Below are positions 4,669 through 18,822 of a DNA stretch of 64,000 nt, in pieces. The stretch covers positions 129,088-193,087 of the forward strand of contig JAWKPF010000004.1 of NCBI GenBank assembly GCA_041390825.1, in the 5' to 3' direction. The DNA is from Thermomicrobiales bacterium (lineage in GTDB: Bacteria; Chloroflexota; Chloroflexia; Thermomicrobiales; UBA6265). The position numbers were made by a program, and so were the translations under genes. The notes under the pieces were generated by a model. The model ran no database searches. It saw only the letters and a program-made list of their open reading frames with translations, and had not been told where the DNA came from. Within the stretch, counting starts at the first letter, position 1, and each line of letters opens with the position of its first letter.

Positions 4669-5115
4669 ATGGCAGGGGTCTTCCAGCATCCGCTCACGCT
4701 GATCGTCCTTGCCCTCTCGCTGGTCGGCACACCGATTTCCTATCGAGGCGGCGCCTCCGACGCGCATGCGCATATGTTCGTGGAGTTCATGCTGGATGCC
4801 GCCAACGGGTCGTTCGGTCATCACCATGGTTCCGCGCAGGCGGAGTCGGATGCGGATGGGCACGACCATGGCCACGACCACGCCAGCGATGTTGCCGACG
4901 CCGAGGAACGGACGCCAACCGGCCAAGAGGCTGTCGTGGCGGATGCGTTTGGCCCTTCCTTCTCCGCGTTCGTCATTGGCGATGTTGGGCAGCTTGCGTC
5001 CGTTCTCCCATTGCGCGATCCCCCTCCGATCGTGAGGCGCGCGTTCGCCGTTTCCCCGTTCGGCAGCTTTCCGACCGGGCTGACGAGCGCCCCTGCCGCC
5101 CCGCCTCCCCGATAG
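4669..5115 (+). CDS. His/Asp-rich membrane-anchored hypothetical protein (candidate metal binder)
   Basis: N-terminal hydrophobic segment, then HAHMFVEFMLDAANGSFGHHHGSAQAESDADGHDHGHDH. No strong RBS. Confidence 0.35.
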   Translation: MAGVFQHPLTLIVLALSLVGTPISYRGGASDAHAHMFVEFMLDAANGSFGHHHGSAQAESDADGHDHGHDHASDVADAEERTPTGQEAVVADAFGPSFSAFVIGDVGQLASVLPLRDPPPIVRRAFAVSPFGSFPTGLTSAPAAPPPR

Positions 5116-5227: not shown

Positions 5228-5719
5228 ATGAATCGACGTTCATTCCTGCGTTCTGGCGCCCTGTTGCTCACCGCCGGCGCTCTCCTGGCTGGCAATGGTC
5301 TCGTCTCGGCGCACGAGCACCGCGAGGTTGGCGGCTATACCTTCGTCGTTGGCTTTCTGAACGAACCCGCCGTGCAAGGCGAAGTCAACGCCGTCAGCGT
5401 GCGCATCACCAAGGCCGCCCCGGCCGACGCCACTCCGGCCGCTGGCGAGGATGAGGTTGCCGAAGTCCCAGTGGAAGGGCTGGAGCTGACCGTGGAGGTG
5501 ATCCTTGGCGATCAGAAGGTGTCTTTGCCAATGGAGCCAAAGTGGGGCGATCCGGGCCACTATGTCGCCTATCTGATTCCCACCCAGCCGGGCGACTATT
5601 CGTTCCATGTGACCGGTGAGATCGAAGGGACGGCGATCGACGAAACCTTCACTGCCGGACCGGAAACCTTCTCGTCGGTCACCCCGCGCGAGGAGCTCGA
5701 ATTCCCGGCCGCGTCCTAG
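5228..5719 (+). CDS. TAT-exported hypothetical protein whose predicted mature N-terminus starts with His (HEH)
   Basis: Twin-arginine leader MNRRSFLRSGALLLTAGALLAGNGLVSA followed by HEHREVGG. GGAG RBS upstream. Sits directly upstream of copC. Confidence 0.55.
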   Translation: MNRRSFLRSGALLLTAGALLAGNGLVSAHEHREVGGYTFVVGFLNEPAVQGEVNAVSVRITKAAPADATPAAGEDEVAEVPVEGLELTVEVILGDQKVSLPMEPKWGDPGHYVAYLIPTQPGDYSFHVTGEIEGTAIDETFTAGPETFSSVTPREELEFPAAS

Positions 5720-5777
5720 CGGCTACCATCAACGGAGACCGGGGGTCGCGTGCCCCGGTCTCCCGCGAGGAGATCGA

Positions 5778-6404
5778 ATGTATCGAAATGCCGCTTGGCT
5801 TCGCTGGTTCGGCACGCTGGTCTGTGTGCTGGCTGTTCTCGGACTGGCGCAACCCGAACAAGCGCTGGCGCACGCTGTGCCGGAACGCGCCAATCCGCCA
5901 ATGAACTCAGCGGTGCCGGTGATGCCCAGCACGGTCGAGATCTGGTTCTCCGAGGACGTGAGCGCGGAGGGCGTCTCACTGACCGTCCTGAAGCTGGACG
6001 GCACGCAGGTCGATCGGGGGAACGCCGCGCTCGATCTGACGGATCCCACGCGCACGCGGGTGACGGTCGGTGTGCATCCCGGGTTGGACAACGGCGAGTA
6101 TCTGGTGCAGTGGACCGTGGTTTCGGCAGTCGATGGCGACAGCACCAGCGGAAGCTACCAGTTCATCGTCGACCCGGCCGCCTCACCTGTGGCGCTTCCC
6201 CAGGTGGCCACCCAGCAAGCGCCTGCTCAGTTGCCAGTGATCGATGCCGAGGGCAATCCGGTCCCGCAGGACGACAACCGGTTGCTCTACGGTATCGCCG
6301 CGGCCGTCACGGGCGCGGCGTTTCTCGGGTTGCTGGCGTTCTGGTTCTTCCGGCGCCCCTCCCGCGGGCGGCGCTGGAGCGACCGGCCGGTCGATCGCCT
6401 ATGA
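5778..6404 (+). CDS. copC: CopC-family periplasmic copper-binding protein with a C-terminal membrane anchor
   Basis: Signal peptide ending ALA followed by HAVPERANP. CopC-like strands (VEIWFSEDV, GEYLVQWTVVSAVDGDSTSGSYQF). C-terminal TM segment. GAGGAG RBS before ATG 5778. Confidence 0.8.
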   Translation: MYRNAAWLRWFGTLVCVLAVLGLAQPEQALAHAVPERANPPMNSAVPVMPSTVEIWFSEDVSAEGVSLTVLKLDGTQVDRGNAALDLTDPTRTRVTVGVHPGLDNGEYLVQWTVVSAVDGDSTSGSYQFIVDPAASPVALPQVATQQAPAQLPVIDAEGNPVPQDDNRLLYGIAAAVTGAAFLGLLAFWFFRRPSRGRRWSDRPVDRL

Positions 6405-8686
6405 GCCGCGCAATCGATTTCTCTGCGGCGACGGCTCGCCATGAGTGGCGCCGCCACGGAGCGGGGCTGTTCCTGCTGCTCGTGCTGCTGGCCGCGTTGC
6501 TGCCGGTGGAAACGTCGGCGCATGCCGCGTTCGATCGGAGCGATCCCCAGCCGAACACCATTCTGGCCGAGTCACCGGCGGAGATCCGCATCTGGTTCAC
6601 CGAACCGCTGGAAGCGGGCTACAACGAGGTGCGGGTCTTCGACCAGACTGGGCACGAGATTCCCAATCTGACGGTCGGGCCGGGTGACGGCGAGAAGTCG
6701 CTGGTTGCCACGTTGCCAGAACCATTGGTGAACGGCACTTATACCGTCGTCTGGCGGAACCTCTCCACGGCCGACGGCCACCCCGCGCAGGGGTATTTCA
6801 CCTTCACCGTGGGCACCCAGGCCGATGTCGCCTCGGTCACCATGCCCGTCATGGACGATTCCGCCGGCGCTCCGCTCTGGTTGCAATCGGCCGCGCGCTG
6901 GCTGGTGCTGCTGGCGCTGGCGGCAGCGATTGCGGTTTGGCCGGTCTGGTTGCTGGTGCTCTGGCCAGCCACCCGGCATGACGGCGCGCTCACCGCGGAA
7001 CTCGCCCAACGCGCCCAGACGTTGGGAACCGGCGCAGTGATCGGCGCGTTGCTGGCCAATCTGCTGGCGCTCGGTGTGCAAGCGACCAATCTGGACGGCG
7101 GATCGTTGCTTTCCCGGATCGGCGAGACCGTTTCCGATACCCGGTACGGCCGACTCTGGCTGGCGCGGGTCGGACTCTTGCTATTGATGGGCGTCGCGCT
7201 CCGATTTCTTCCCTGGCGCGATCCGATTCGACAATGGCCATCGACGGCGATCGGGCTGGTCATTGCGGCCCTCTTGCCGTTGCCGGTCAGCATGAACGCT
7301 CACGCGGCCGCGCTGGATGCAGGGCGCACCACTGCCATCGTCTTCGACTACGCGCACACTCTGAGCGCGTCGGTCTGGTTCGGCGGGTTGATCCTGCTGG
7401 GCGGGGTGCTGATCCGCGCATTGCGCGGCCAGATCGATCGCCGCGCGGTGTTGGCTCAGGCGCTGCCGCGGTTCTCCGCTATGGCGCTGGTCTGCTGGGG
7501 ATTGCTGGCGATCACCGGTCTCTACGCCTGGTGGCTCCAGGTGGGAAGCTGGGCGGCTCTGCGGGAGACGCAGTACGGCCAGTCGCTGCTGTTCAAACTG
7601 ATTCTGGTGGGGATCGTCTTCCTGATCGCTGGTCTGAATCTGTTGGTCATCACCCGCAAACTGGCGCGGGTCGATGCCATGGCGCAACCGCGCTGGTTCG
7701 GGCGCCTCGGGTATGCGGTGCTGGCCGAACTGGTGTTGACCACGCTCCTCCTGCTGGCGGTCGGCCGGATGACCAGTCTGCAACCGGCGCGCGATGTGCT
7801 GGCGGCCGAGCAATCCGGCCAGACGGTGCAATTCGATCTCGAGGGGCGCGATGTCACCCTGCAGATCGCGCCCGCCGCAGCCGGCCCGAATCACTTTCTG
7901 GTCACCATTCCGGGCGATCCGGCGCCGGATGGCACGGAGGCGCTCATCCGCTTCACCTATACCGGTGAGGATTTTGGCGTCAAGGAGGTCGAACTCGACC
8001 GTTCCGGACCAGCCACCTACGAAACCCATGGCAGCGAAATGGGCATTGCTGGCGAATGGGAACTCGAGCTCATCGTGCGGGAAATTGGGGAGTTCTCGTG
8101 GAGTGACACGCAGGTCATTTCCATTGGCGCCACCGGATCGGCTGCGCCGACACCGCCATGGCGTTTCGGCACTGGGGGCGCGATCGGGCTGCTGTTGCTT
8201 GGGATCGCGCTGGTCGGGTTCGTGGTCGCCTGGAGAGCTGGACGATCCCGCTTCCGCATGGAGAGCGCGGGACTGGCCGCTATTGCGACCGTGCTGGGGT
8301 TGATGCTCATGGCGCAGGCGCGCATCCAGCCAACGGTGGGATTCGATCCGGGGCTGACCAATCCCGTTGCCGCGACGAGTGGTTCGGTCACCCTGGGGCA
8401 GGAGCTCTATACGGCCAACTGTCTGGCCTGTCATGGCGCGGCTGGAGAAGGAGACGGTCCGGGAGGGGAAAACATGTTCCCGAAACCGGCCGATTTCACC
8501 GCCGCGCACACCAAGGTGCATCCAGACGGTCAGCTCTATGACTGGATCAAGAATGGCAAGGACGGCACCGAGATGCCGGCCTTCCCCCAGTTGACCGATG
8601 AGCAGATCTGGAACCTGATCAATTACCTCCAGGTCGAGTTCCAGGGGAAACCGATGGTCGAGGGAACACCGACCCCGGTGGAGTAG
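6401..8686 (+). CDS. Fusion protein: CopC domain, CopD-type polytopic membrane domain, YtkA/FixH-like beta domain (tentative), and a C-terminal c-type cytochrome domain
   Basis: ATGA overlap with the copC stop. TSA|HAAFDRSDP plus RIWFTEPL and TYTVVWRNLSTADGHPAQGYFTF (CopC). About 8 TM segments (CopD). CLACH heme motif at nt 8420-8434, followed by TEMPAF. Confidence 0.8.
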   Translation: MSRAIDFSAATARHEWRRHGAGLFLLLVLLAALLPVETSAHAAFDRSDPQPNTILAESPAEIRIWFTEPLEAGYNEVRVFDQTGHEIPNLTVGPGDGEKSLVATLPEPLVNGTYTVVWRNLSTADGHPAQGYFTFTVGTQADVASVTMPVMDDSAGAPLWLQSAARWLVLLALAAAIAVWPVWLLVLWPATRHDGALTAELAQRAQTLGTGAVIGALLANLLALGVQATNLDGGSLLSRIGETVSDTRYGRLWLARVGLLLLMGVALRFLPWRDPIRQWPSTAIGLVIAALLPLPVSMNAHAAALDAGRTTAIVFDYAHTLSASVWFGGLILLGGVLIRALRGQIDRRAVLAQALPRFSAMALVCWGLLAITGLYAWWLQVGSWAALRETQYGQSLLFKLILVGIVFLIAGLNLLVITRKLARVDAMAQPRWFGRLGYAVLAELVLTTLLLLAVGRMTSLQPARDVLAAEQSGQTVQFDLEGRDVTLQIAPAAAGPNHFLVTIPGDPAPDGTEALIRFTYTGEDFGVKEVELDRSGPATYETHGSEMGIAGEWELELIVREIGEFSWSDTQVISIGATGSAAPTPPWRFGTGGAIGLLLLGIALVGFVVAWRAGRSRFRMESAGLAAIATVLGLMLMAQARIQPTVGFDPGLTNPVAATSGSVTLGQELYTANCLACHGAAGEGDGPGGENMFPKPADFTAAHTKVHPDGQLYDWIKNGKDGTEMPAFPQLTDEQIWNLINYLQVEFQGKPMVEGTPTPVE

Positions 8687-9420: not shown

Positions 9421-10011
9421 CTACATCGTGGGCGAAGCTGCTGGCGAGGCTGCCGGAGTGGCATCCATCGCCATGGCCGGAGCGGGCCGCGACCAGACGC
9501 CCGAGATGGTCAGGTCACCAGCTTCGGTCGAAACGATCGCATCGCCCTCGGGCGCCGCGCTCTGCACAGTCACCGGCACGACGACCTCGCCGGCGCGCTC
9601 GAAGGTGAGCGTCAGGTCGAAGGTGTCGCCCGCGTTCAGATCGTGCTTCAGGCCGATGAGCATGATGTGGAATCCGCCTGGTTCGAGAGCAACGGTTTCA
9701 CCGGCGGGAATCTCGAGCCCATCGGTGAGCGGACGCATTTCCATGACGCCGTTGTTGTCGGCAATTTCATGAATCTCGACCACAGCCGACACGTCGGCTG
9801 CCGCGGCGATCAGGCGGTCGGCTTCGGAGCCGCCATTCTCGACGTGGAAATAGGCTGCCCCCGTGCCGCCCATGGCGTGACCGGACATTCCGCCGGCCAT
9901 GGGGGATGCCTCGGGAGTCGCGTCGTCATGCGCGGCGGCGATGCCGCCGAAACCAATCAATCCAATTGCCAGAGCCGCCAGGGCCAGCATGCGCAGTGCA
10001 ATTCGGTTCAT
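9421..10011 (-). CDS. PCu(A)C-type periplasmic copper chaperone (DUF461 family)
   Basis: Signal peptide. Met/His-rich N-terminus (PMAGGMSGHAMGG). Family motifs MEMRPL and PGGFHIMLIGL. GGAG RBS. Confidence 0.8.
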   Translation of the reverse strand: MNRIALRMLALAALAIGLIGFGGIAAAHDDATPEASPMAGGMSGHAMGGTGAAYFHVENGGSEADRLIAAAADVSAVVEIHEIADNNGVMEMRPLTDGLEIPAGETVALEPGGFHIMLIGLKHDLNAGDTFDLTLTFERAGEVVVPVTVQSAAPEGDAIVSTEAGDLTISGVWSRPAPAMAMDATPAASPAASPTM

Positions 10012-10044: not shown

Positions 10045-10668
10045 TTATTCGGAAATCAGGTGTTGCACGTCTTCCGTGATCATCGCGGGGTCGGTGCCGT
10101 AGGGATAGGTCAGCCGGAGCTTGCCCTCCTTGTCGATGACGTAGATCAGGGCGGTGTGATCGATCAGATAGCCGGTCGAGGAGTTGGGATACTCGACCCG
10201 CTTGATCGTGACGCCGTAGTCCTTCAGGAACTGCTCGGTCTGCGCGTCGTCGCCACGCAATCCAATGAAGTCCGGATCGAAGAAGTTCAGGTACTCCTGC
10301 ATGCGGGCTTGCGTGTCGCGCTCGGGATCGAACGTGACCATGATGAATTCGACTTCATCGGCTTCGTCGCCCAGGTCTTCCTTCACGATGGCGAAGTCGT
10401 TCAGCGTGGTTGGGCAGAGATCGGGGCAGGTGGTGTAGCCGAAGTAGATCAGCGCGACCTTTCCCTCTTCTTGCGCCAGCGAGTACGGCTCGCCATGCTG
10501 GTCGGTTAGCGCCAGGTCCGGGGCAGTGGCCGCGGGACTGATCTCGCCACCGTTGAACTCGTACGCCTCGGTGCGGTTCGTGGCCCAATAGATGACGCCC
10601 CCGGCAATGAGCACCAATAGGGCAAGCACTCCGAGGAGTTGGTAGCGGCGGTTGGACGATGTCGTCAT
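10045..10668 (-). CDS. SCO1/SenC-family copper chaperone / thiol-disulfide oxidoreductase
   Basis: N-terminal TM. CxxxC motif YFGYTTCPDLCP and a downstream conserved His (DHTALIYVIDKEG). AGGAG RBS. Confidence 0.9.
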   Translation of the reverse strand: MTTSSNRRYQLLGVLALLVLIAGGVIYWATNRTEAYEFNGGEISPAATAPDLALTDQHGEPYSLAQEEGKVALIYFGYTTCPDLCPTTLNDFAIVKEDLGDEADEVEFIMVTFDPERDTQARMQEYLNFFDPDFIGLRGDDAQTEQFLKDYGVTIKRVEYPNSSTGYLIDHTALIYVIDKEGKLRLTYPYGTDPAMITEDVQHLISE

Positions 10669-10689: not shown

Positions 10690-11961
10690 CTAGAACGGCG
10701 ACCAGGTTGCGTATTCGTTCAGGCGGCTCAGCGAATCGGTGAGCAAGAGCGCGGCGATGAGCAGGATCAGGACTCCGCTGACCTGTTGCATGCGGGGGAG
10801 CCATGCCCGGAACCGGGACGATTCCGCCATGAACTTGTCCACGAGCACAGTTGCCAGCAGGAATGGAACGGCCAGACCCAGCGAGTAGATCGCCAGCAGG
10901 CCGGTGCCCTCGCGCACGGTCGCGTCCGCGGCTGCGATGGTGAGAATGCTGGCCAGCGCCGGGCCGATGCAGGGGGTCCAGCCCGCTCCGAACGCCACCC
11001 CGATCAGGAAGGTTCCGGCGCGTCCGTATGAGCGGCCGCCCAGATCCATCTTGACGGTGCGGTCGGCGAACGGGAGGCGCAACAATCCGAGCAGGTGCAG
11101 CCCCAGGATTGCCAGAAAGACGCCCCCGACGCGCGCGATCCAGATGCGGTACTCCTGCAACCAACCCCCGAGCGCCGTGGCGGAGGCTCCAAAGAGCATA
11201 AAGACCGTGGTGAAGCCAAGCACGAAGAGGAGCCCGTTGATGGCCGTGGCGCGGCGCGCGCGGCGCTTGACCTCCCGATCGGTGGAGCGGAGCTCGGCGA
11301 AGCTCATGCCGCTGATCACCGCCGCGTAGGTGGGAATCAGCGGAAAGACGCAGGGCGAAAGAAAGCTGAGCAATCCTGCCGCGAACGCTACCGGAATGCC
11401 CACCCGCGCCACGGTCGAGGTCACCTGGCTGGCATCGGTGACCGTGCCTGCCAGAGCATCCTCGATCAGCGTCAGGTCGTCCGCGTTCTCTTCGACCAGC
11501 GCGCCTTTCCACCGATAGAGGATTTCACCGTCCCGCCCGATCAGCAGGGTTTCCGGCACGCCAGTTGTTTCGAAGGCGCGCGCGAAACGATTGGAGGAGT
11601 CGCGCCAGACGGGGAAGGTGACGCCGTGGTCCTCAGCGAATGCCTGGACCGCGTCGTCCTGTCCGTTGCGGTCGATGCTCACCCCGACGACCTGCAACCC
11701 CTGATCGGCGTACCGATCACTGAGGGCCTGCAACCAGGGCATCTCCTCTTTGCAGGGAGTGCACCAGGTGGCCCAGGTGTTCAGCAGCACAACATCACCC
11801 TGCAGGTCTTGCAGCGAGACGGTGTCGCCGGTGGCGAGGTCGGTGGCCTCGAATTCGGGTGCGGTGGTGGCCGAGACGTTGCCAGTCAGCAGGAGCAGGG
11901 TAAGCAGTCCCAGCCCGAGCAAGACCAACGCGCGCGGTCCGCGAAGCGTAAAGCGATGCAT
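10690..11961 (-). CDS. Fusion of a TlpA/ResA-like thioredoxin domain with a CcdA/DsbD-type transmembrane electron-transfer domain
   Basis: Thioredoxin motif WATWCTPC in the N-terminal half. CcdA motif SFLSPCVFPLIP and a second Cys in GWTPCIGP within about 6 TM segments. Confidence 0.85.
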   Translation of the reverse strand: MHRFTLRGPRALVLLGLGLLTLLLLTGNVSATTAPEFEATDLATGDTVSLQDLQGDVVLLNTWATWCTPCKEEMPWLQALSDRYADQGLQVVGVSIDRNGQDDAVQAFAEDHGVTFPVWRDSSNRFARAFETTGVPETLLIGRDGEILYRWKGALVEENADDLTLIEDALAGTVTDASQVTSTVARVGIPVAFAAGLLSFLSPCVFPLIPTYAAVISGMSFAELRSTDREVKRRARRATAINGLLFVLGFTTVFMLFGASATALGGWLQEYRIWIARVGGVFLAILGLHLLGLLRLPFADRTVKMDLGGRSYGRAGTFLIGVAFGAGWTPCIGPALASILTIAAADATVREGTGLLAIYSLGLAVPFLLATVLVDKFMAESSRFRAWLPRMQQVSGVLILLIAALLLTDSLSRLNEYATWSPF

Positions 11962-12097
11962 GTTCTTCGATCCTGTTGTTCGATCAGACGGTCACCGCGC
12001 GTAGATGCGGAGATGCCCGGCTACGCTCCGGCCCGATGGGCAGAACGGACGGTGACCGAGGAACCGGCACACAGTGTGCGGCTCCAGGCAGCGAGGA

Positions 12098-12589
12098 TCA
12101 GGCTGCTTTGGGGGGTGGCGAATCGGGAGGAATGGCGATACCAGTCAGCATCGCAGCCGGAGGGTTGACCTGCAGCAATGGATCTCCGTCCATTTGCAGC
12201 AGCGCTTCGATGTCCGGAGGCACTGGCGTGGCTGGCAAATCGAGCGCCGCGCCGACTGGTTGTTGCGATTGCGCATCGGCGCCGTCGGCCAGCATGAACT
12301 GGCAGAGCAGGTGCGATGCATCGGCCGAATCGGCATCGGAGGCGGAAGTTGGCGCACCATGATGGTGATGCCCAGTCATCGAGCCGGATTCGCTGGAGGC
12401 AGCGGCCGCATGCTGATGCCCGCTCATGCGCTCCATGTTCATGCCGGTGGGATCGACAAAGATCGAGTGCGGCGCGGTGGAGGCGTCACAGCGTACAGGA
12501 ATGAAGGCAAAGGAGACGATCAGCAGAATCGTCACCAGACGGATGCCCCATACGCGGTATTCGGTTGGCTTGCTGTTGCGCATTGCCAT
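12098..12589 (-). CDS. His-rich membrane-anchored hypothetical protein (candidate metal binder)
   Basis: ATG 12589 or 12583 preceded by GAAGG. One TM (IRLVTILLIVSFAFIPV), then MSGHQHAAAASSESGSMTGHHHHG ... CQFMLADG. Confidence 0.4.
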   Translation of the reverse strand: MAMRNSKPTEYRVWGIRLVTILLIVSFAFIPVRCDASTAPHSIFVDPTGMNMERMSGHQHAAAASSESGSMTGHHHHGAPTSASDADSADASHLLCQFMLADGADAQSQQPVGAALDLPATPVPPDIEALLQMDGDPLLQVNPPAAMLTGIAIPPDSPPPKAA

Positions 12590-12881
12590 TGCCTTCGGGT
12601 ACTCGGGTCGATCCCGATGTCCCTGCTGACAAGTATCCCAAACTCTGAGCGCGCAACCAATCGAAAATGGGGTCTCCGCGGCACATTGGCACGATTCTGT
12701 AACGTCTTCCGGCGCGCGCATGGTCGTGCGTATCATGCCCGGATGGCCGAGCAACATGCTCGCGAACGCTCTGGGAGCGATCAGGCAACTGTCAGGATCT
12801 CATCCACTGCTACCATTTGGGATGGGCAGACGGTGCAGCAGGCAGCGCGAACCAGCGCGTTGCCAGGCAGGAGACCCTTCG

Positions 12882-14012
12882 ATGGATCCAGACCGGTTCG
12901 ATTCGCTTGCCAAGCGGCTTGGGGGGCGGATTTCGCGGCGCGCGTTCGTTGGCGCAGCAGCCGCAACGATGTTGGCGGTTCCGGCCGTTCCCTATCGCAG
13001 CACGGTGCTTGCACAAAGCGAACGGACCACGGCGATCGACCGCTATATCGCCGTCCGCACCTTCGCCTATGACAGCACGCGCGAGAAGGCCGAAGCCGAA
13101 CTGCCCGATCTGGTTGCGCACATGGAGGAGCAGCCGGGATTCGTTGGTATCGAGTGTGTCTGGGGCGAGACCGAGATCTATCTGATCGTTACGTTCCTCG
13201 ATGAGGCAACCTCGGTTCCGGGAATGGAAACGATCGACTGGTGGATCGAAACCCACATTCAGTCGACGCTCTATGGCGACTTCGAACAGTCCGAGGGGAA
13301 GGTCGTACTCCGCTCGTTTCTCTTTGCGGGATGCCCGTGCGATCTGGAGGATGACGACGACCCGTGCGGTTCCGATCTGCTGGTGTGCTGCCCGGTTTCC
13401 GAGAGCGAGGGAGAGCCTGGTGTTTGCCTGACCGCGGAAACCACCTGCCCGGCCGGCGGCGGAGCGGATGACGATCCCAGCGATGAAGAACTGACGCTCT
13501 CGGCAGGCGATCTCACCCCCATTGCCGGCGCGGCGGTCTCCTGCACGAGTGAAGGATGCGACTGCCCAGACGGTATCTGTGACGCCGGGCTGGCTTGCTG
13601 CACATCCACCGGTACCTGCCAATACACCTGCCCATGCGGATATGAAGGCTGTTACTGCGTCGGCAGTGTCGTGAATACCTGCGACGACGGTCTGATCTGC
13701 TGCGCTCCAGGTGAGATCGGCGGCGAAGGGACGTGCCAGTATTCGTGCTCCTGCAGCTATGAGGGATGCTCGTGCACGACCGGGGTCGATGGCGCTTGCG
13801 ACGCTGGACTTTCGTGCTGCGGCATCTTCAGCTCCGACCCCGGCAATATCGGCGCCTGTCTCAGTAGCTGCTCCAATGGCTCGACCAACCCATGCCCCGG
13901 CGCAGACGGCTGCGAGTGCATTCCCGGCACTTCGTGGATCTGCAACGCCGGTCTCGTTTGCTGCGGCGCCGAGGCTGGCGAATCCGGCATCTGCGCAAGT
14001 TCGTGCGCCTGA
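12882..14012 (+). CDS. TAT-leader protein with an ABM/Dabb-like alpha+beta domain (tentative) and C-terminal hyper-cysteine repeat modules (paralog 1)
   Basis: ATG 12882 after GGAG. Leader MDPDRFDSLAKRLGGRISRRAFVGAAAATMLAV. Four modules of type GCxCx(5-7)C[DN]xGLxCC...GxC plus one N-terminal variant. Confidence 0.7.
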   Translation: MDPDRFDSLAKRLGGRISRRAFVGAAAATMLAVPAVPYRSTVLAQSERTTAIDRYIAVRTFAYDSTREKAEAELPDLVAHMEEQPGFVGIECVWGETEIYLIVTFLDEATSVPGMETIDWWIETHIQSTLYGDFEQSEGKVVLRSFLFAGCPCDLEDDDDPCGSDLLVCCPVSESEGEPGVCLTAETTCPAGGGADDDPSDEELTLSAGDLTPIAGAAVSCTSEGCDCPDGICDAGLACCTSTGTCQYTCPCGYEGCYCVGSVVNTCDDGLICCAPGEIGGEGTCQYSCSCSYEGCSCTTGVDGACDAGLSCCGIFSSDPGNIGACLSSCSNGSTNPCPGADGCECIPGTSWICNAGLVCCGAEAGESGICASSCA

Positions 14013-14233
14013 ACGCAATCGACGAGAACCGATCGTGCCGGTAGCAGGAACCATTTCGGTCTGGACTGCGTTGTAGGATTGGTGTTCACTGGTACGTACC
14101 AGTTATGCGCGATCCGTGGCAACATGCACGGGTATTGTGCGCGGCTGGTAGCATGGGTGATGGTCCAGGCAGGGTGCAGGGACCATATTGGCACCACTAT
14201 CAATTCCCCCGTGAGGGCAGAGGAGGAACGCGC

Positions 14234-15490
14234 GTGGATCCGAACCGATTCGACTCGTTCGCCAAGAAGCTGGGTAGCCGGCTTTCTCGCCGCGACATGA
14301 TGCGTGTCAGCGCCGCCACGGCCGTGGGCGCCATCGCTGTCAGCAAGTTCACCAGCGTGGCTGCTCAGGATGCGGGCACCACGGCCAAGGATCGCTTCAT
14401 CTCGGTGCGCACGTATGCGTACAGCGGCACCGAGGCGGATGCGGCTTCCGGACTGAGCGGCATCATCGCCGTTATGGAGCAGCAGCCAGGCTTTATCGAA
14501 TACAACCTCGTCTTCGGCGATGGGCAGATCCTGGCAATCTCGACGTTCCTCGATGAGACCACGGCGGTGGCCGCGGCGCAGCAGGAAGATGCCTGGATCA
14601 GCGCCAATGCCGCCAATATCCTGAGCGGCTCGCCGACGATTCAGAGTGGCGATGTCTTCCTCCGCTCCGAGCTGCACGCTGGTTGCGGTTGCATCACCGG
14701 AACGGAGGATCCCTGCCACTCCTCACGCCTCACCTGCTGTGCTACGACCGACCGCATGGGCGGCCCGGGTATCTGCCTTACCAACGAAACGACTTGCCCG
14801 GGCGCGATGCCGGCTGAACCGACCGCGACTGCGGCGCCAGATGAGCCGACCGCAGTTCCGGCATGCACGGGCGAAGGCTGCGCCTGCAACGGCGGCGTCC
14901 AGAACGCCTGCGACGATGGACTGGTCTGCTGCGGTGTGACCGAGCCCGGTGGCCCCGGCACCTGCGAGACGGAATCCGAATGCAATCCGACTTGCTCCAG
15001 CGAGGGCTGCACCTGTATCGGTGGCACCGAAGGCGCCTGCGATGATGGTCTTGTTTGCTGCGGCTCGAACCAGCCGGGCGGCTCCGGCCACTGCATGACC
15101 GAGGATGAGTGCAACCCGCCGTGCACCAGCGACGGATGCACTTGCACCGCCGGCACCCAGGGCGCCTGCGACGACGGTCTCGAATGCTGCGGCGCGGACA
15201 CGCCGGGCGGTCAGGGCACCTGCATGGCTTCGTGCCCCTGCACCGGCGACGGATGCGCGTGCACCACTGGCACCGATGGCAATTGCGATGACGGACTCGT
15301 CTGCTGCGCAGCCGACATGACCACTCCGGGTTCCCCGGGCACCTGCATGGCGGTCTGCGATTCCAGCGATTGCAACGGTCAGGAGAACTGCCCCTGCACT
15401 GCCGGCACCGAGGGCGCCTGCAACGATGGTCTCGAGTGCTGCGGCGCCGATACCCCGGGTGGACAGGGCACCTGCCAGAGCAGCTGCTAG
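14234..15490 (+). CDS. TAT-leader protein with an ABM/Dabb-like domain (tentative) and five hyper-cysteine repeat modules (paralog 2)
   Basis: GTG 14234 after GAGGAGG. Leader VDPNRFDSFAKKLGSRLSRRDMMRVSAATAVGAIAV. Five ACDDGL[VE]CC-type modules. I count 47 Cys in the C-terminal region. Confidence 0.7.
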   Translation: MDPNRFDSFAKKLGSRLSRRDMMRVSAATAVGAIAVSKFTSVAAQDAGTTAKDRFISVRTYAYSGTEADAASGLSGIIAVMEQQPGFIEYNLVFGDGQILAISTFLDETTAVAAAQQEDAWISANAANILSGSPTIQSGDVFLRSELHAGCGCITGTEDPCHSSRLTCCATTDRMGGPGICLTNETTCPGAMPAEPTATAAPDEPTAVPACTGEGCACNGGVQNACDDGLVCCGVTEPGGPGTCETESECNPTCSSEGCTCIGGTEGACDDGLVCCGSNQPGGSGHCMTEDECNPPCTSDGCTCTAGTQGACDDGLECCGADTPGGQGTCMASCPCTGDGCACTTGTDGNCDDGLVCCAADMTTPGSPGTCMAVCDSSDCNGQENCPCTAGTEGACNDGLECCGADTPGGQGTCQSSC

Positions 15491-15511
15491 TCGCTCAGTC
15501 CTGATGCGCAA

Positions 15512-15546
15512 CCGAGGCGGCCGATCGGCCGCCTCGGTTTCTTGTT
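15512..15546 (+). terminator. Intrinsic terminator after the Cys-repeat gene pair
   Basis: Near-perfect palindrome CCGAGGCGGCCGATCGGCCGCCTCGG followed by TTTCTTGTT. Confidence 0.7.
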
Positions 15547-15553
15547 GGTTAGA

Positions 15554-15616
15554 GTCCAGAGTCCAGAGTCCAGGGTTCAGGGGCCAGAGGGGAGGGTCCA
15601 GAGGGGAGGGTTTTGT
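15554..15616. repeat. Heptad-periodic spacer, 9 units (GTCCAGA GTCCAGA GTCCAGG GTTCAGG GGCCAGA GGGGAGG GTCCAGA GGGGAGG GTTTTGT)
   Basis: Read directly. Sits between convergent genes. Confidence 0.9.
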
Positions 15617-15625
15617 GGTTCTCCG

Positions 15626-16903
15626 CTATCCAAGCAAGGGGCGGATGGCCTCGGTTGCCGTGGATAGGGCCTGGGATGCGGTTTGCTCGCCGCGCAGCGC
15701 CTTCTGGATTTCGCGCCCGATCTCCAGCGTGATCTCCATATAGTTCCGGGTCACGAAGCTATCGAAGGGCGACTCCGCCTGCTGCCGCAGCACCGCCGCG
15801 ACCGGTGTGGTTGCCTGAATCTCCGGATCATCCAGCGACGAGAGCCGCGCCGGCAACCATCCCAGATCGGTCCATTGCCGTTTTTGCACCTCGGGACTGA
15901 GGTAGAACTCGAGGAGCTGCATGGCCAGGTCGGGATTTTGGGATGTCGAGGCGAGTGTCCAGCCATCGACAGCGTTGACGGTCGCGTTGTTTTCCGGTCC
16001 CTTTGGCATCACGGCCGGGATGACTTTTTCGGTGCCGGGCGCGGCGCCGCCGTTCATCACTTCCCAGGATGATGGAAAGGTCATGAACATGGCCATGCCG
16101 TCATATTGCATGCGGAATGCCACGGCGGTGGTGTCGATATTGCTGAGCGTGTCACCGGTCATGGAGGGCATGAGGTCGATCATGAGTTGCAACGCGTCGA
16201 CCCCGGGCGCATCGTCGAATGCAGGCTGCCCGGCCTCGTCCCACATGACGCCACCGGCCTGTTGCAAGAACGCCATCCAGTACGACGTGACGCCGCCGAT
16301 TCCTGCCGGGGCGCCCCAGGGCGCCATCATGCCGATGGGAAAGGGCGGTCCCTGAAACTCGGCGGCGAACCCTTTCAGTTCGTCCCAGGTCGTCGGTGGC
16401 CCGGTCAGCCCTTTTTCGTCGAAGAGGTTCTTGTTGTAGAACAGGAGCATGAGGGAGAGGGTCGGCATTACACCGTACTGCTGCCCCTCCCAGGACATGG
16501 ATGTTCCCTGCGCTGGCGCCAGATCGTTCACCAGCTCGTCCGGCAAGCGTGAGCCGATTTCCTGCAGGTACGGACTGAACTCGGGAATCATTGCCGAGTT
16601 GTAGAGTAGGTCATAGACAGGGGCGTCGGTGTCGAAGGCGGCCTGGCTGACCTGATCGATCGAGAAAAGCGGTCGGATGTCGTAGGTGATGGCAGTGTCG
16701 CGGTCGAACTTCCAGATATCCAGCATGTCGTTGCCGTAATCGTAGGTTCCCGGCGGCCGTGGCTCTGGCCGTCCCGCGGTGAGGACGGTCAACTGGTTGG
16801 CTTGTGCTCCGACCGGCGCAACGCCATGGCCCAGGGCGAGCCCTGTCCCGGCCGCCGCGCCCATTTTCATCAATCTACGCCGGTCGAGCCGTCGCATCTC
16901 CAT
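15626..16903 (-). CDS. ABC transporter extracellular solute-binding protein (family 1, sugar type), orphan
   Basis: TAT-like leader MEMRRLDRRRLMKMGAAAGTGLALG. Typical SBP_bac_1 length and W/Y-rich composition. AAGGTG RBS. No permease genes adjacent. Confidence 0.8.
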   Translation of the reverse strand: MEMRRLDRRRLMKMGAAAGTGLALGHGVAPVGAQANQLTVLTAGRPEPRPPGTYDYGNDMLDIWKFDRDTAITYDIRPLFSIDQVSQAAFDTDAPVYDLLYNSAMIPEFSPYLQEIGSRLPDELVNDLAPAQGTSMSWEGQQYGVMPTLSLMLLFYNKNLFDEKGLTGPPTTWDELKGFAAEFQGPPFPIGMMAPWGAPAGIGGVTSYWMAFLQQAGGVMWDEAGQPAFDDAPGVDALQLMIDLMPSMTGDTLSNIDTTAVAFRMQYDGMAMFMTFPSSWEVMNGGAAPGTEKVIPAVMPKGPENNATVNAVDGWTLASTSQNPDLAMQLLEFYLSPEVQKRQWTDLGWLPARLSSLDDPEIQATTPVAAVLRQQAESPFDSFVTRNYMEITLEIGREIQKALRGEQTASQALSTATEAIRPLLG

Positions 16904-17103
16904 CACCTTGTCACGTATCTGTTTCAGCCGGAGTGATGCTATCCGGGTCCGGTGTCCAGTGTCCAGTGTCGGGAAGCCGACGTTCCACGCATTTCGCAGC
17001 TTCCCTCCTGCACCCAGTCGAAGCAGGATGGCCGAGAACGGGGCGATGTGCGTAAACAGAGACGCGCCCTGGATCATACGGCGCACGCGCGGAGAGCAAT
17101 GCG

Positions 17104-17430
17104 ATGCATCAGATCATTACCGACAATTTGCACGCCATCCAGGCAATTTGCGAAGAGTTTGGGGTTGCTCGTCTCGAACTCTTCGGCTCGGCTGCTCGCG
17201 ACGACTTCGACCCTGAGAAGAGCGATATCGACTTCATCGTCGAATTCATCGATCATGGCGCCGGCATCTCCGATCGGTACTTCGGGTTGACGCACGCCTT
17301 GGAGGATTTGCTTGGACGTCTCGTAGATATAGGGTTTGCGCGCACCTTAAAGAATCCATATTTCATAGCTGAAATAGAAGCAGATCGGACTGTCCTCTAT
17401 GAATCGGAAAATCGCATCGCGGCTGCTTGA
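17104..17430 (+). CDS. MNT-type nucleotidyltransferase (antitoxin-like partner of HEPN/DUF86 toxins)
   Basis: Pol-beta-type NTase motif LFGSAARDDFDPEKSDIDFIV. About 108 aa, typical for MntA-like proteins. Confidence 0.8.
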   Translation: MHQIITDNLHAIQAICEEFGVARLELFGSAARDDFDPEKSDIDFIVEFIDHGAGISDRYFGLTHALEDLLGRLVDIGFARTLKNPYFIAEIEADRTVLYESENRIAAA

Positions 17431-17613: not shown

Positions 17614-18822
17614 CTATCCGAACGTCGCGTCCAGGGCTGCTGATAGGTCGGCGATCAGGTCGGATGGGTCTTCGAGACCGACCGAGAACCGCAGGTGGCC
17701 GTAGCGGCGGAACGGTTCTGGATAGCGTTCCCAGCCGCCGCGGCCTTCTGGGCCGACATGGACGATGAGTGATTCGTCGTGGCCAAGGGAGACGGCGGAG
17801 GTGATTACCTTCAAGTTGCTCACGAAGCGGTTTTGCGTGTCCGCGTCGCCTTCGACCGCGAAGGCCAGCATGCCGCCGAAGCCATAGTCCCCGAACTGCC
17901 GCCTGGCTGATTCGTGTTGCGGGTGGGATGCCAGCCCCGGGTAGTAGACATAGGCGACGAAGGGGTCCTTCGCCAGGAATTCGGCGACCCGCTGGGCGCT
18001 TTCCACATGCTGCCGAAGCCGCAGGGGCAATGTCACCGAACCGCGGGTGATCATCCAGGCGTTGAACGGCGAAATCGCGCCGCCAACATCGACCAGCGCA
18101 TCGGCCTTGATCTTCGAGATCAGCGCGTTCGACCCGATCACCGCGCCACCCATGGCGTCGCCATGTCCATTGATGTACTTGGTCAGCGAGTGCGCCACCA
18201 AATCGGCGCCATGTTCCAGCGGACGGAACATCGGCGGAGGCGAAAACGTGGAATCGACCGTGAGCAGCGCTCCGCTTTCATGCGCGATTTCGGCCAGTGC
18301 CGCGATATCGGCTACTTCGGTGGTGGGGTTGGCGATCACCTCGGTGTGGATCAGCTTCGTTTCCGGGCGCATGGCGGCGCGCACTTCGTCCGGGTTGGTG
18401 ATGTCGACAAAGGTTGCGGAAATCCCGTATTTGTCCGGTAGCAGCTCATCGAATAACCGCCAGATGGCTTCGTAGGTGACATCGCTGAGGACGACGTGAT
18501 CGCCGCTCTCGAGCAGCGTGAAGAAGACTCCGTGCAGGGCAGCGACACCGGTGGCGAAGACGGCCGCCGCTTCGCCCCGTTCCAGCGCAGCCAGCTTTTC
18601 TTCCAGCCGGAGCTGGTTCAGCCCGGTGTTGCGGGTGTAGAAGAGGCTATTGGTGTCCGACCAGTCGATTCCGGTGGGGTCTTCCGGCAACGCATACGAG
18701 TTCGCCATTACGAGCGGTGTGCGAATTGCCCCGCTGCCGGCATCGATTTCATTGCCGATATGCACTGCTTGGGTAGCGAATGCCAGCGATTGCGGGTCGT
18801 GTTTGTCGGGTCGGAGGGTCAT
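17614..18822 (-). CDS. PLP-dependent Cys/Met-metabolism enzyme (methionine gamma-lyase / cystathionine gamma-synthase / O-acylhomoserine sulfhydrylase family)
   Basis: PLP-lysine motif HSLTKYINGHGDAMGG. Family-typical length and N-terminal FATQAVH. Confidence 0.85.
   Translation of the reverse strand: MTLRPDKHDPQSLAFATQAVHIGNEIDAGSGAIRTPLVMANSYALPEDPTGIDWSDTNSLFYTRNTGLNQLRLEEKLAALERGEAAAVFATGVAALHGVFFTLLESGDHVVLSDVTYEAIWRLFDELLPDKYGISATFVDITNPDEVRAAMRPETKLIHTEVIANPTTEVADIAALAEIAHESGALLTVDSTFSPPPMFRPLEHGADLVAHSLTKYINGHGDAMGGAVIGSNALISKIKADALVDVGGAISPFNAWMITRGSVTLPLRLRQHVESAQRVAEFLAKDPFVAYVYYPGLASHPQHESARRQFGDYGFGGMLAFAVEGDADTQNRFVSNLKVITSAVSLGHDESLIVHVGPEGRGGWERYPEPFRRYGHLRFSVGLEDPSDLIADLSAALDATFG

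Follow-up and report, generated by a model that had tools for sequence, protein, structure and literature searches.

The stretch of DNA analysed here, hereafter the window, spans 64,000 nucleotides of a Thermomicrobiales bacterium (contig JAWKPF010000004.1), and at positions 12882 to 15490 it carries two adjacent genes, par1 and par2, which encode Cys-rich proteins behind a twin-arginine-type leader. The par1 gene (12882-14012, + strand) starts with ATG and encodes 376 residues with 40 Cys. The par2 gene (14234-15490, + strand) starts with GTG, which GGAGGA precedes, and encodes 418 residues with 47 Cys, all within residues 151-418. An earlier reading made from the sequence alone (the sequence-only reading) had described tandem same-strand paralogs of shared architecture, with 47 Cys in the second. 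Both statements were borne out, the Cys count exactly, and BLASTP aligned the two proteins over their full length with 43% identity (E 5e-87). Each protein consists of a leader, an ABM-fold domain, a 7-Cys variant module (M0), a linker and an array of 8-Cys modules, four in par1 and five in par2.

In par1, the alignment and direct reading placed in the leader (residues 1-45; 12882-13016) a helix with the motif R-F-D (the RFD helix), S-R-R, an Ala-rich hydrophobic segment and L-A-Q. The ABM-fold domain (residues ~50-148; 13029-13325), positioned by alignment to the par2 model, contains one of the 40 Cys, C92. Then come M0 (13326-13451), which by Cys pattern and module hidden Markov model (HMM) is without the first Cys of the canonical module, and the four-module array (13539-14009), delimited by Cys pattern. 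In par2, the leader (residues 1-45; 14234-14368) comprises the RFD helix, S-R-R-D-M-M-R, 13 uncharged residues, K38 and V-A-A-Q. The ABM-fold domain (14381-14677) was modelled with strands at residues 55-63, 87-105 and 130-140 and helices at 67-82 and 108-125. M0 (14678-14800) terminates in an invariant T-T-C-P and is followed by a Pro/Thr/Ala/Glu linker (14801-14860) with a predicted local distance difference test score (pLDDT) below 50, and by the five-module array (14861-15487). Within this array, a 129-bp DNA tandem repeat (14981-15226; 1.9 copies, 77% identical) shows that one module was duplicated, which explains why par2 has five modules and most orthologs four.

Neither protein matched any Pfam or NCBIfam model, and PDB sequence-profile searches with the module, or with the 4-Cys core described below, returned nothing. 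The module thus lies outside these libraries, in keeping with the earlier failure to place it in any bacterial family. Searching 5.8 billion proteins with par2 yielded 198 relatives, every one labelled 'hypothetical', the named ones coming from Thermomicrobiales metagenome-assembled genomes (MAGs). Among 185,579 GTDB species genomes we found only 7 loci, all in Thermomicrobiales/Chloroflexota MAGs, and a module profile built from the window sequences only matched 54 clusters out of 1.84 billion cluster representatives. The recurrence of the family in 198 database proteins, with strict Cys conservation, confirmed that the observation was not due to chance. The literature searched for the RFD leader, its protein class or the ABM/Cys-module family gave no description of them. 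The two genes therefore appear to be tandem paralogs of a previously undescribed family which, to judge from named relatives in Thermomicrobiales/Chloroflexota, would be confined to Thermomicrobiales.

Relatives were of two types. The short type, which includes the window genes, has 23, 31, 39 or 47 Cys, that is, 8n+7, and the long type, of 500-685 residues, has 58 to 90 Cys, that is, 8n+2. A second, knottin-like module, C-x6-C-x3-C-x5-C-x2-CC-S-x2-C-x5-C, is interleaved in the long type and in three small genes of locus L012. The L012 genes (Chloroflexota MAG; ~5480-5968, 6062-6577 and 6587-6961) stand in tandem and encode a leader and Cys modules only, the 8-Cys module being mixed with the knottin-like C..CCS..C module; they have neither an ABM domain nor a copper context. 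An alignment of 70 homologs was the basis for the leader, ABM-domain and sub-threshold HMM counts given below.

Both paralogs begin with M/V-D-P-x-R-F-D-S-[LF]-A-K-[RK]-L-G ... S-R-R and an Ala/Gly-rich segment. F6, D7, R19 and R20 were invariant in 70/70 homologs, and R5, L13, G14, S18, A44 and Q45 nearly so. The twin-arginine stretch is S-R-R-D-M-M-R in par2 and S-R-R-A-F-V-G in par1, and homologs follow the pattern S-R-R-x-hydrophobic-hydrophobic-[RK], continued by an uncharged, Ala/Gly-rich stretch of at least 13 residues, then by a basic residue and a site resembling A-x-A. The h-region of par2 reads directly as VSAATAVGAIAVS, with K38 then in the c-region and V-A-A-Q after it, and A-x-A-type cleavage is predicted before Q45. 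By its motif, the leader would be a twin-arginine-type signal, and its cargo would presumably take the twin-arginine translocation (Tat) route. Neither paralog matched PF10518 or TIGR01409, models that are short and weak. The weak Tat-related matches among homologs involved PF10518, PF12318, TIGR01409 and TIGR02811: PF10518 was sub-threshold in 5/70 (best E 0.01), TIGR01409 in 2/70 (0.024) and formate_TAT in 8/70 (0.11), and the Tat-subunit family PF12318 appeared in 9/70. Hence, of the Tat leader proposed earlier, the motif, the invariant Arg pair, the h-region and the cleavage site all hold, and the curated Tat models reach it only below threshold. A leader of the kind carried by precursors of peptides that are made by ribosomes and modified after translation (RiPPs) was rejected, as the Arg pair, h-region and cleavage site are present and the neighbourhoods examined held no maturase genes. 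Other Tat-like signals of the window, in the sugar-binding protein at 15626-17086 and the 163-residue proteins, have no R-F-D helix, so this organism does not use the helix generally. When the 5.8-billion-protein index was searched with a profile of the leader alone, 7 short fragments were all that came back, Ala-rich words having probably swamped the index.

The ~100-residue region after the leader had been called ABM-like, and this was right at the level of fold. AlphaFold2, with the 70-sequence alignment, gave par2 a mean pLDDT of 80, and about 94 at residues 50-140. The top PDB matches in Foldseek were all ABM or dimeric ferredoxin-like proteins, namely SnoaB, NE2512, RslO4, ActVA-Orf6, MhuD and LsrG (E 2e-5 to 1e-3; target-normalised TM-score, for template modelling, 0.6-0.79). 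At the level of sequence, neither paralog matched Pfam ABM (PF03992), which was sub-threshold in 9/70 homologs (best E 0.007). One relative is annotated HmoA by the Joint Genome Institute. No His was invariant in the domain across the 70 homologs, so that the ABM head would not, by sequence, be a haem degrader of the IsdG/MhuD type.

The canonical module reads C-x4-C-x-C-x7-C-x5-CC-x10-C-x3-5-C, with 8 Cys in ~41 residues. The sequence-only reading had been correct in its four or five copies of a ~40-residue module, and its motif had missed the first and the last Cys, giving six. With the module HMM, all 8 Cys were kept in 504 of 622 distinct modules, most apparent exceptions being alignment shifts, and in M0 the first Cys was absent throughout the family. 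Beyond Cys, the module keeps G, D-(D/A)-G-L and P-G-G-x-G, a conservation that fits a folded bead rather than a metallothionein; to our knowledge, conserved non-Cys or fold positions are not typical of metallothioneins. The modules hold no conserved His or Met, and Pfam/HMM scans of the window proteins and their homologs gave no match to metallothionein or Csp families. We rejected a granulin (PF00396; 12 Cys, four CC doublets), whose superficial resemblance had been pointed out earlier, as each module has 8 Cys with a single CC doublet and there was no Pfam hit.

In the full par2 model the modules reached a pLDDT of 80-90, and a two-module AlphaFold model (pLDDT 81) showed three strands and a short helix per module. 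The top 18 Foldseek matches of the latter, all but the last-ranked one, were disulfide-rich mini-proteins, at E-values (0.35-9) that are not significant. These structural neighbours included MIT1, DkTx, Hi1a, psalmotoxin, mu-agatoxin, delta-palutoxins, tachystatin B, Evasin-3, the IGFBP-5 mini-domain, IGFBP7 and SIBD-1. In the comparison with knottins, where each module offers three strands, mu-agatoxin, delta-palutoxin, tachystatin B and psalmotoxin reached TM-scores of 0.45-0.60 with E-values of 4 to 9. The module profile also found a 4-Cys version, C-x7-C-x2-G-L-x-C-x(n)-P-G-G-x-G-x-C, in two proteins from transcriptomes of marine eukaryotes and in one from the chytrid Rhizoclosmatium, which UniRef names 'IGFBP N-terminal domain-containing protein'. 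Two of these 4-Cys proteins match Pfam Lustrin_cystein (PF14625) above cut-off; par1 and par2 match neither PF14625 nor PF00219. Aligned with hhalign, window modules and 4-Cys modules gave a probability of 96% (E 1.6e-9) from the third to the seventh Cys, in a test that is partly circular since the 4-Cys set was chosen from module-profile hits. The Thermomicrobiales module looks like a disulfide-stabilised core to which four Cys were added. From these models and comparisons, the modules are most likely disulfide knots rather than metal clusters.

We then considered the leader as a marker of other proteins. A hand-made DNA pattern for M/V-D-x-x-R-F-D-x11-R-R, run on a metagenome collection, matched at least 120 stretches. 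Among the matches listed, 50 distinct complete open reading frames (ORFs) had a real leader, that is, a hydrophobic segment after the Arg pair, and 28 were chance matches; the counts that follow concern these listed ORFs. Median Cys content was 11.1% in leader ORFs vs 1.3% in chance ORFs, and 38/50 against 1/28 had at least 8% Cys, the extreme being a leader ORF with 120 Cys in 679 residues. Leader ORFs with at least 8 Cys numbered 45, and in 44 of them the Cys count was even (binomial p 2.6e-12); this is what disulfide pairing predicts, with no rationale for it in metal clusters. The leader, in the form M-D-x-x-R-F-D-x-L-x-R-x-L...[ST]-R-R, precedes many types of module (L017-L136, e.g. L110, L094, L124 and L129), and some of these ORFs carry cargo matching Pfam Stig1, the spider-toxin family Toxin_12 or Dicty_CTDC above cut-off. 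This association of an R-F-D leader with hyper-cysteine, even-Cys secreted proteins across metagenomes is the more general and the more surprising result.

The only odd case among the 45, L109 with 39 Cys, belongs to the ABM family. Indeed, the short-type ABM family departs from the even rule, its 8n+7 Cys going with an M0 fused directly to the ABM domain. Such a count would leave one conserved unpaired Cys next to the ABM head, contributed by an M0 that lacks one partner; this Cys is probably C188, within T-T-C-P. Six of the 70 members, par1 included, have gained exactly one extra Cys, always in the ABM domain (position 92, 100 or 105), and this restores an even total. In par1, the C92 codon lies at window positions 13155-13157, and the other 40-Cys members are P0081, P0083, P0089, P0062 and P0093. 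It looks as if a partner for the lone Cys of M0 had been supplied repeatedly, which suggests that this Cys lies against the ABM head. It may be present as a free thiol, bridge the two subunits of an ABM dimer or serve as a metal ligand.

Neighbour clustering, carried out with a chaperone in mind, found only two recurrent neighbours of leader genes, MauE-thioredoxin fusions (3 loci) and STAND-type (signal transduction ATPases with numerous domains) regulators (3 loci), and these are too few loci to call. The MauE-thioredoxin (thioredoxin/AhpC-TSA) fusions carry a C-H-C motif and adjoin an RFD-leader Cys-rich gene at L094:1572-3167 (-), L047:5991-7208 (-) and L025:4-306; neither the window nor loci L001-L016 contain a MauE gene. 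A 2026 preprint reports that MauE acts as a disulfide oxidase in place of DsbB. The regulators, encoded by large HTH-NB-ARC/AAA-TPR genes, lie a few kb from RFD-leader Cys-rich genes (L002:16267-18600, L014:12875-15370 and L107:435-2837), a recurrence that may be coincidental. Tentatively, and with the odds rather against it, one may see in the helix M-D-x-x-R-F-D-x-L-x-R-x-L before the Arg pair the address tag of a dedicated, undescribed export and oxidative-folding route for hyper-disulfide proteins in Chloroflexota and other soil bacteria. Until translocation, cargo with 10-120 Cys would be kept reduced and soluble by a factor specific for the helix; oxidases, MauE-type or other, would then act outside the membrane. 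Within this class, the copper-locus ABM family would have been adapted so that one Cys stays unpaired as a copper or redox-active site.

Par1 and par2 stand in an extensive copper locus. On the - strand, divergent from the pair, lie a His-rich membrane-anchored protein (12098-12757), which the ORF list and locus comparison show to be conserved in orthologous loci, a TlpA-like thioredoxin fused to a CcdA/DsbD transmembrane domain (10690-11961), Sco1/SenC (10045-10668), the PCuAC copper chaperone (9421-10011) and a 163-residue protein; par1 and par2 lie beyond the His-rich gene. These divergent neighbours (His-rich protein, TlpA-CcdA, Sco1 and PCuAC) are as the sequence-only reading had listed them. 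On the + strand, the copper genes encode a cytochrome c, a His-rich protein, a 163-residue protein with a Tat signal, CopC and a CopC-CopD-cytochrome c fusion, the last two (5616-8686) being the sole neighbour common to all copper-linked loci of the family. This second His-rich protein (HHHG...DGHDHGHDH; 4669-5115, + strand) and the 163-residue protein with its Tat-like signal MNRRSFLRSGALLL (5228-5719, + strand) are encoded upstream of CopC, have counterparts in L001 and L002 and gave no Pfam hit; they are likely further copper-locus components.

Short-type relatives were found beside copper genes in ten loci, in three arrangements, and always with CopC/CopCD-cytochrome c. The gene order of the window recurs in L002, L004, L005, L007, L008 and L011. 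In L001 and L009 the paralogs directly follow CopCD, with no sco operon between, and in a more divergent genome (L138) they precede CopC/CopCD. Each locus holds two to four copies in tandem, and in L005 a multicopper oxidase gene and a DUF305 gene abut them. As to the linkage of homologs to copper and thiol-redox genes, it holds for the short type, over ten loci of one order, and fails for the long type. Near the paralogs and CopCD of L138, a 222-residue gene (17622-18290, - strand) with a faint Dickkopf_N hit may encode another Cys-rich secreted protein. Downstream of the pair, the window contains a nucleotidyltransferase (MNT-like) ORF (17104-17430, + strand); the orthologous spot in L001 and L005 is occupied by an NTP_transf_2 and HepT-like toxin-antitoxin pair.

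A motif search located a promoter-like element of the extended -10 type (TGnTAnnAT) before each gene, CTGCTACCAT at 12807-12816 (+ strand), 75 nucleotides upstream of par1, and CTGGTAGCAT at 14145-14154 (+ strand), 89 nucleotides upstream of par2. Their common form, CTG[CG]TA[CG]CAT, occurs only 2 times in the window vs 0.1 expected, and orthologous loci have it at the corresponding place; middle paralogs and long-type genes are preceded by a variant of it or by no copy at all. It is probably an extended -10 promoter, one per paralog, kept since the duplication. An operator for a copper regulator was rejected on account of its absence or variation before the middle paralogs and long-type genes and of its lack of likeness to any CsoR or CopY box known to us. 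A perfect 16-bp palindrome, ACTGGTACGTACCAGT (14088-14103), lies between par1 and the promoter-like motif of par2, related GGTAC..ACC elements occur in L001, L002, L007 and L009, and it is a possible regulator site. The palindrome, too, is unlike the copper-regulator boxes that we know. Twenty nucleotides after the par2 stop codon there is a strong terminator-like hairpin with a 13-bp stem and a T run (15510-15539, + strand), and just downstream of it a 7-bp tandem repeat, AGAGTCC, in 5.6 copies (15551-15589). A simple sigma-70 scan gave no promoter, and an Rfam scan of 12000-15800 gave nothing.

On balance, we lean towards a protein exported by a Tat-type signal, in which an ABM head is carried on a string of disulfide-knotted beads and which has a probable copper-related role outside the cytoplasm. 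Each paralog would be transcribed from its own promoter into a precursor whose twin-arginine-type signal peptide has, as its N-region, a conserved amphipathic helix (M-D-x-x-R-F-D-x-L-A-K-x-L). Once the precursor is exported and cleaved at A-x-A before Q45, the mature protein would comprise a diverged alpha+beta ABM head, the 7-Cys module fused directly to it, a flexible acidic/Pro linker and four or five 8-Cys beads. Each bead would be a small beta-hairpin domain with four disulfides, built on the 4-Cys core seen in eukaryotic secreted proteins, and together the beads would form a string stable to heat and proteases rather than metal-thiolate clusters. The working end is likely the ABM head with the single unpaired Cys of the 7-Cys module. 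The most likely job of the protein would be extracytoplasmic copper handling, because in the copper-linked loci the genes are always beside CopC/CopCD-cytochrome c and usually near Sco1, PCuAC and TlpA-CcdA. The adjacent TlpA-CcdA could hold the lone thiol reduced, or repair mis-oxidised disulfides under copper stress.

Several observations weigh against this proposal. Proteins transported by Tat normally fold in the cytoplasm, a compartment that would not allow 20 or more disulfides to form, so that the cargo would have to be exported in an unfolded, hydrophilic state, or the route would not be Tat. Metallothioneins and the Cu cluster of CopG likewise contain C-x-C and CC motifs. The parity control was small and itself mostly even (10/12), which makes it a weak control, and to this are added the non-significant structural matches and the circularity mentioned above. 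As for copper, all copper-linked loci come from one order, genes for a sugar-binding protein and a pyridoxal-phosphate (PLP) enzyme are equally syntenic, a divergent member (L137) has no copper genes on its 6.9-kb contig, and long-type relatives, which share the modules, have no copper linkage.

The sequence-only reading had argued from Tat export to a metal-thiolate or cluster-bearing cargo. Such modules would each bear a Cys4 site or form Cu(I)/Zn clusters of the metallothionein kind; having taken up metal in the cytoplasm, they would leave it in folded form through Tat and serve as an extracellular copper sink or store like Csp1. Csp1 and Csp2, Cys-rich Cu(I) stores with predicted Tat export (PMC6747150), are a precedent. 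The copper-gene setting in ten loci also speaks for such a store, as do the tandem gene copies and variable number of modules, which would scale binding capacity. As happens with Tat substrates that bear cofactors, a proofreading chaperone could dock on the leader helix; a Cys4 site could arise from the four Cys by which the module exceeds the 4-Cys core, and the neighbouring TlpA-CcdA could keep thiols reduced. Yet the beads are confidently predicted to be ordered, with conserved Gly, Asp and Leu, as beta-hairpins on a 4-Cys core; their neighbours in structure, though weak, and in sequence are all disulfide proteins; and the leader class includes Stig1 and Toxin_12 matches. Strict multiples of 8, and the even rule seen in 44/45 of the leader ORFs listed, would have no rationale in metal clusters, the same modules occur in proteins lacking a copper context, and there is neither a conserved His or Met nor a metallothionein or Csp family match. 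We therefore depart from the earlier argument on this point and consider metal-thiolate modules unlikely.

Disulfide-knot arrays might also be secreted for a job other than copper, such as adhesion or matrix formation, inhibition of competitor enzymes or channels, or antimicrobial action, the adjacency to copper genes being an inherited gene order. The broad leader and Cys-rich class, with cargo resembling toxin, Stig1 and IGFBP-type binding modules, would fit such a job, and so would the three tandem genes of L012 with leader and modules only. The paralogs also evolve faster (40-75% identity) than TlpA-CcdA and the PLP enzyme (80-90%), synteny extends to unrelated neighbours, and no copper genes lie near long-type relatives. 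However, adjacency to CopC/CopCD persists through three gene orders, including the divergent genome where the paralogs come before CopC/CopCD, the multicopper oxidase and DUF305 genes of L005 were inserted right beside the paralogs, and it is the copper-linked subfamily that has the distinctive ABM head and the odd Cys. A non-copper role thus seems improbable to us, and we retain copper handling by an ABM head borne on disulfide-knotted beads as our preferred reading.

Prokaryotic disulfide-knot repeat proteins are almost unstudied, and this family offers a defined module, a leader and a genomic context. A short N-terminal motif is enough to pick Cys-rich secreted proteins from metagenomes, some with folds like those of eukaryotic toxins or growth-factor binders, and this raises the question of how a Tat-type route handles cargo needing dozens of disulfides. 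The family is also of interest to copper biology, as a candidate for a new extracytoplasmic partner of CopC/CopCD, Sco1 and PCuAC in Chloroflexota, with one free Cys beside the ABM head as a testable prediction. A further use of the modules may be as heat-stable scaffolds.

Known systems share parts of this architecture. Residues ~50-148 have the fold of the ABM superfamily (dimeric alpha+beta barrel, PF03992), but the window domain falls below the Pfam threshold, is predicted to be exported, is fused to Cys modules and has no invariant His. The methylamine dehydrogenase small subunit is likewise a small, disulfide-dense exported protein. It has a dedicated MauE thiol-oxidoreductase system (MauE/MauD), and MauE-thioredoxin genes adjoin RFD-leader genes in three metagenomic loci; in contrast, neither the window nor the family loci yielded a MauE gene, and there is no context for a tryptophan tryptophylquinone cofactor. 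The 4-Cys modules of IGFBP N-terminal and Lustrin cysteine-rich proteins share the core C-x7-C-x2-G-L-x-C-x(n)-P-G-G-x-G-x-C, and IGFBP-5, IGFBP7 and SIBD-1 are structural neighbours. The window modules add four Cys and do not match PF00219 or PF14625, the likeness being one of homology or of convergence. Secreted cysteine-rich repeat proteins (SCREPs) such as DkTx and Hi1a, both neighbours of the two-module model at non-significant Foldseek E-values, also consist of a signal peptide followed by tandem small disulfide-rich domains, and a survey of them lists many uncharacterised bacterial members (PMC6262176). The window family differs from SCREPs in its Tat-type leader with an extra helix, its ABM head and its 8, not 6, Cys per module. 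Finally, Csp1 is, like the window proteins, Cys-rich, predicted to be exported by Tat and related to copper (PMC6747150), but its Cys line the core of a four-helix bundle, whereas the window modules are predicted to be beta-hairpin beads whose Cys would be even in number and paired.

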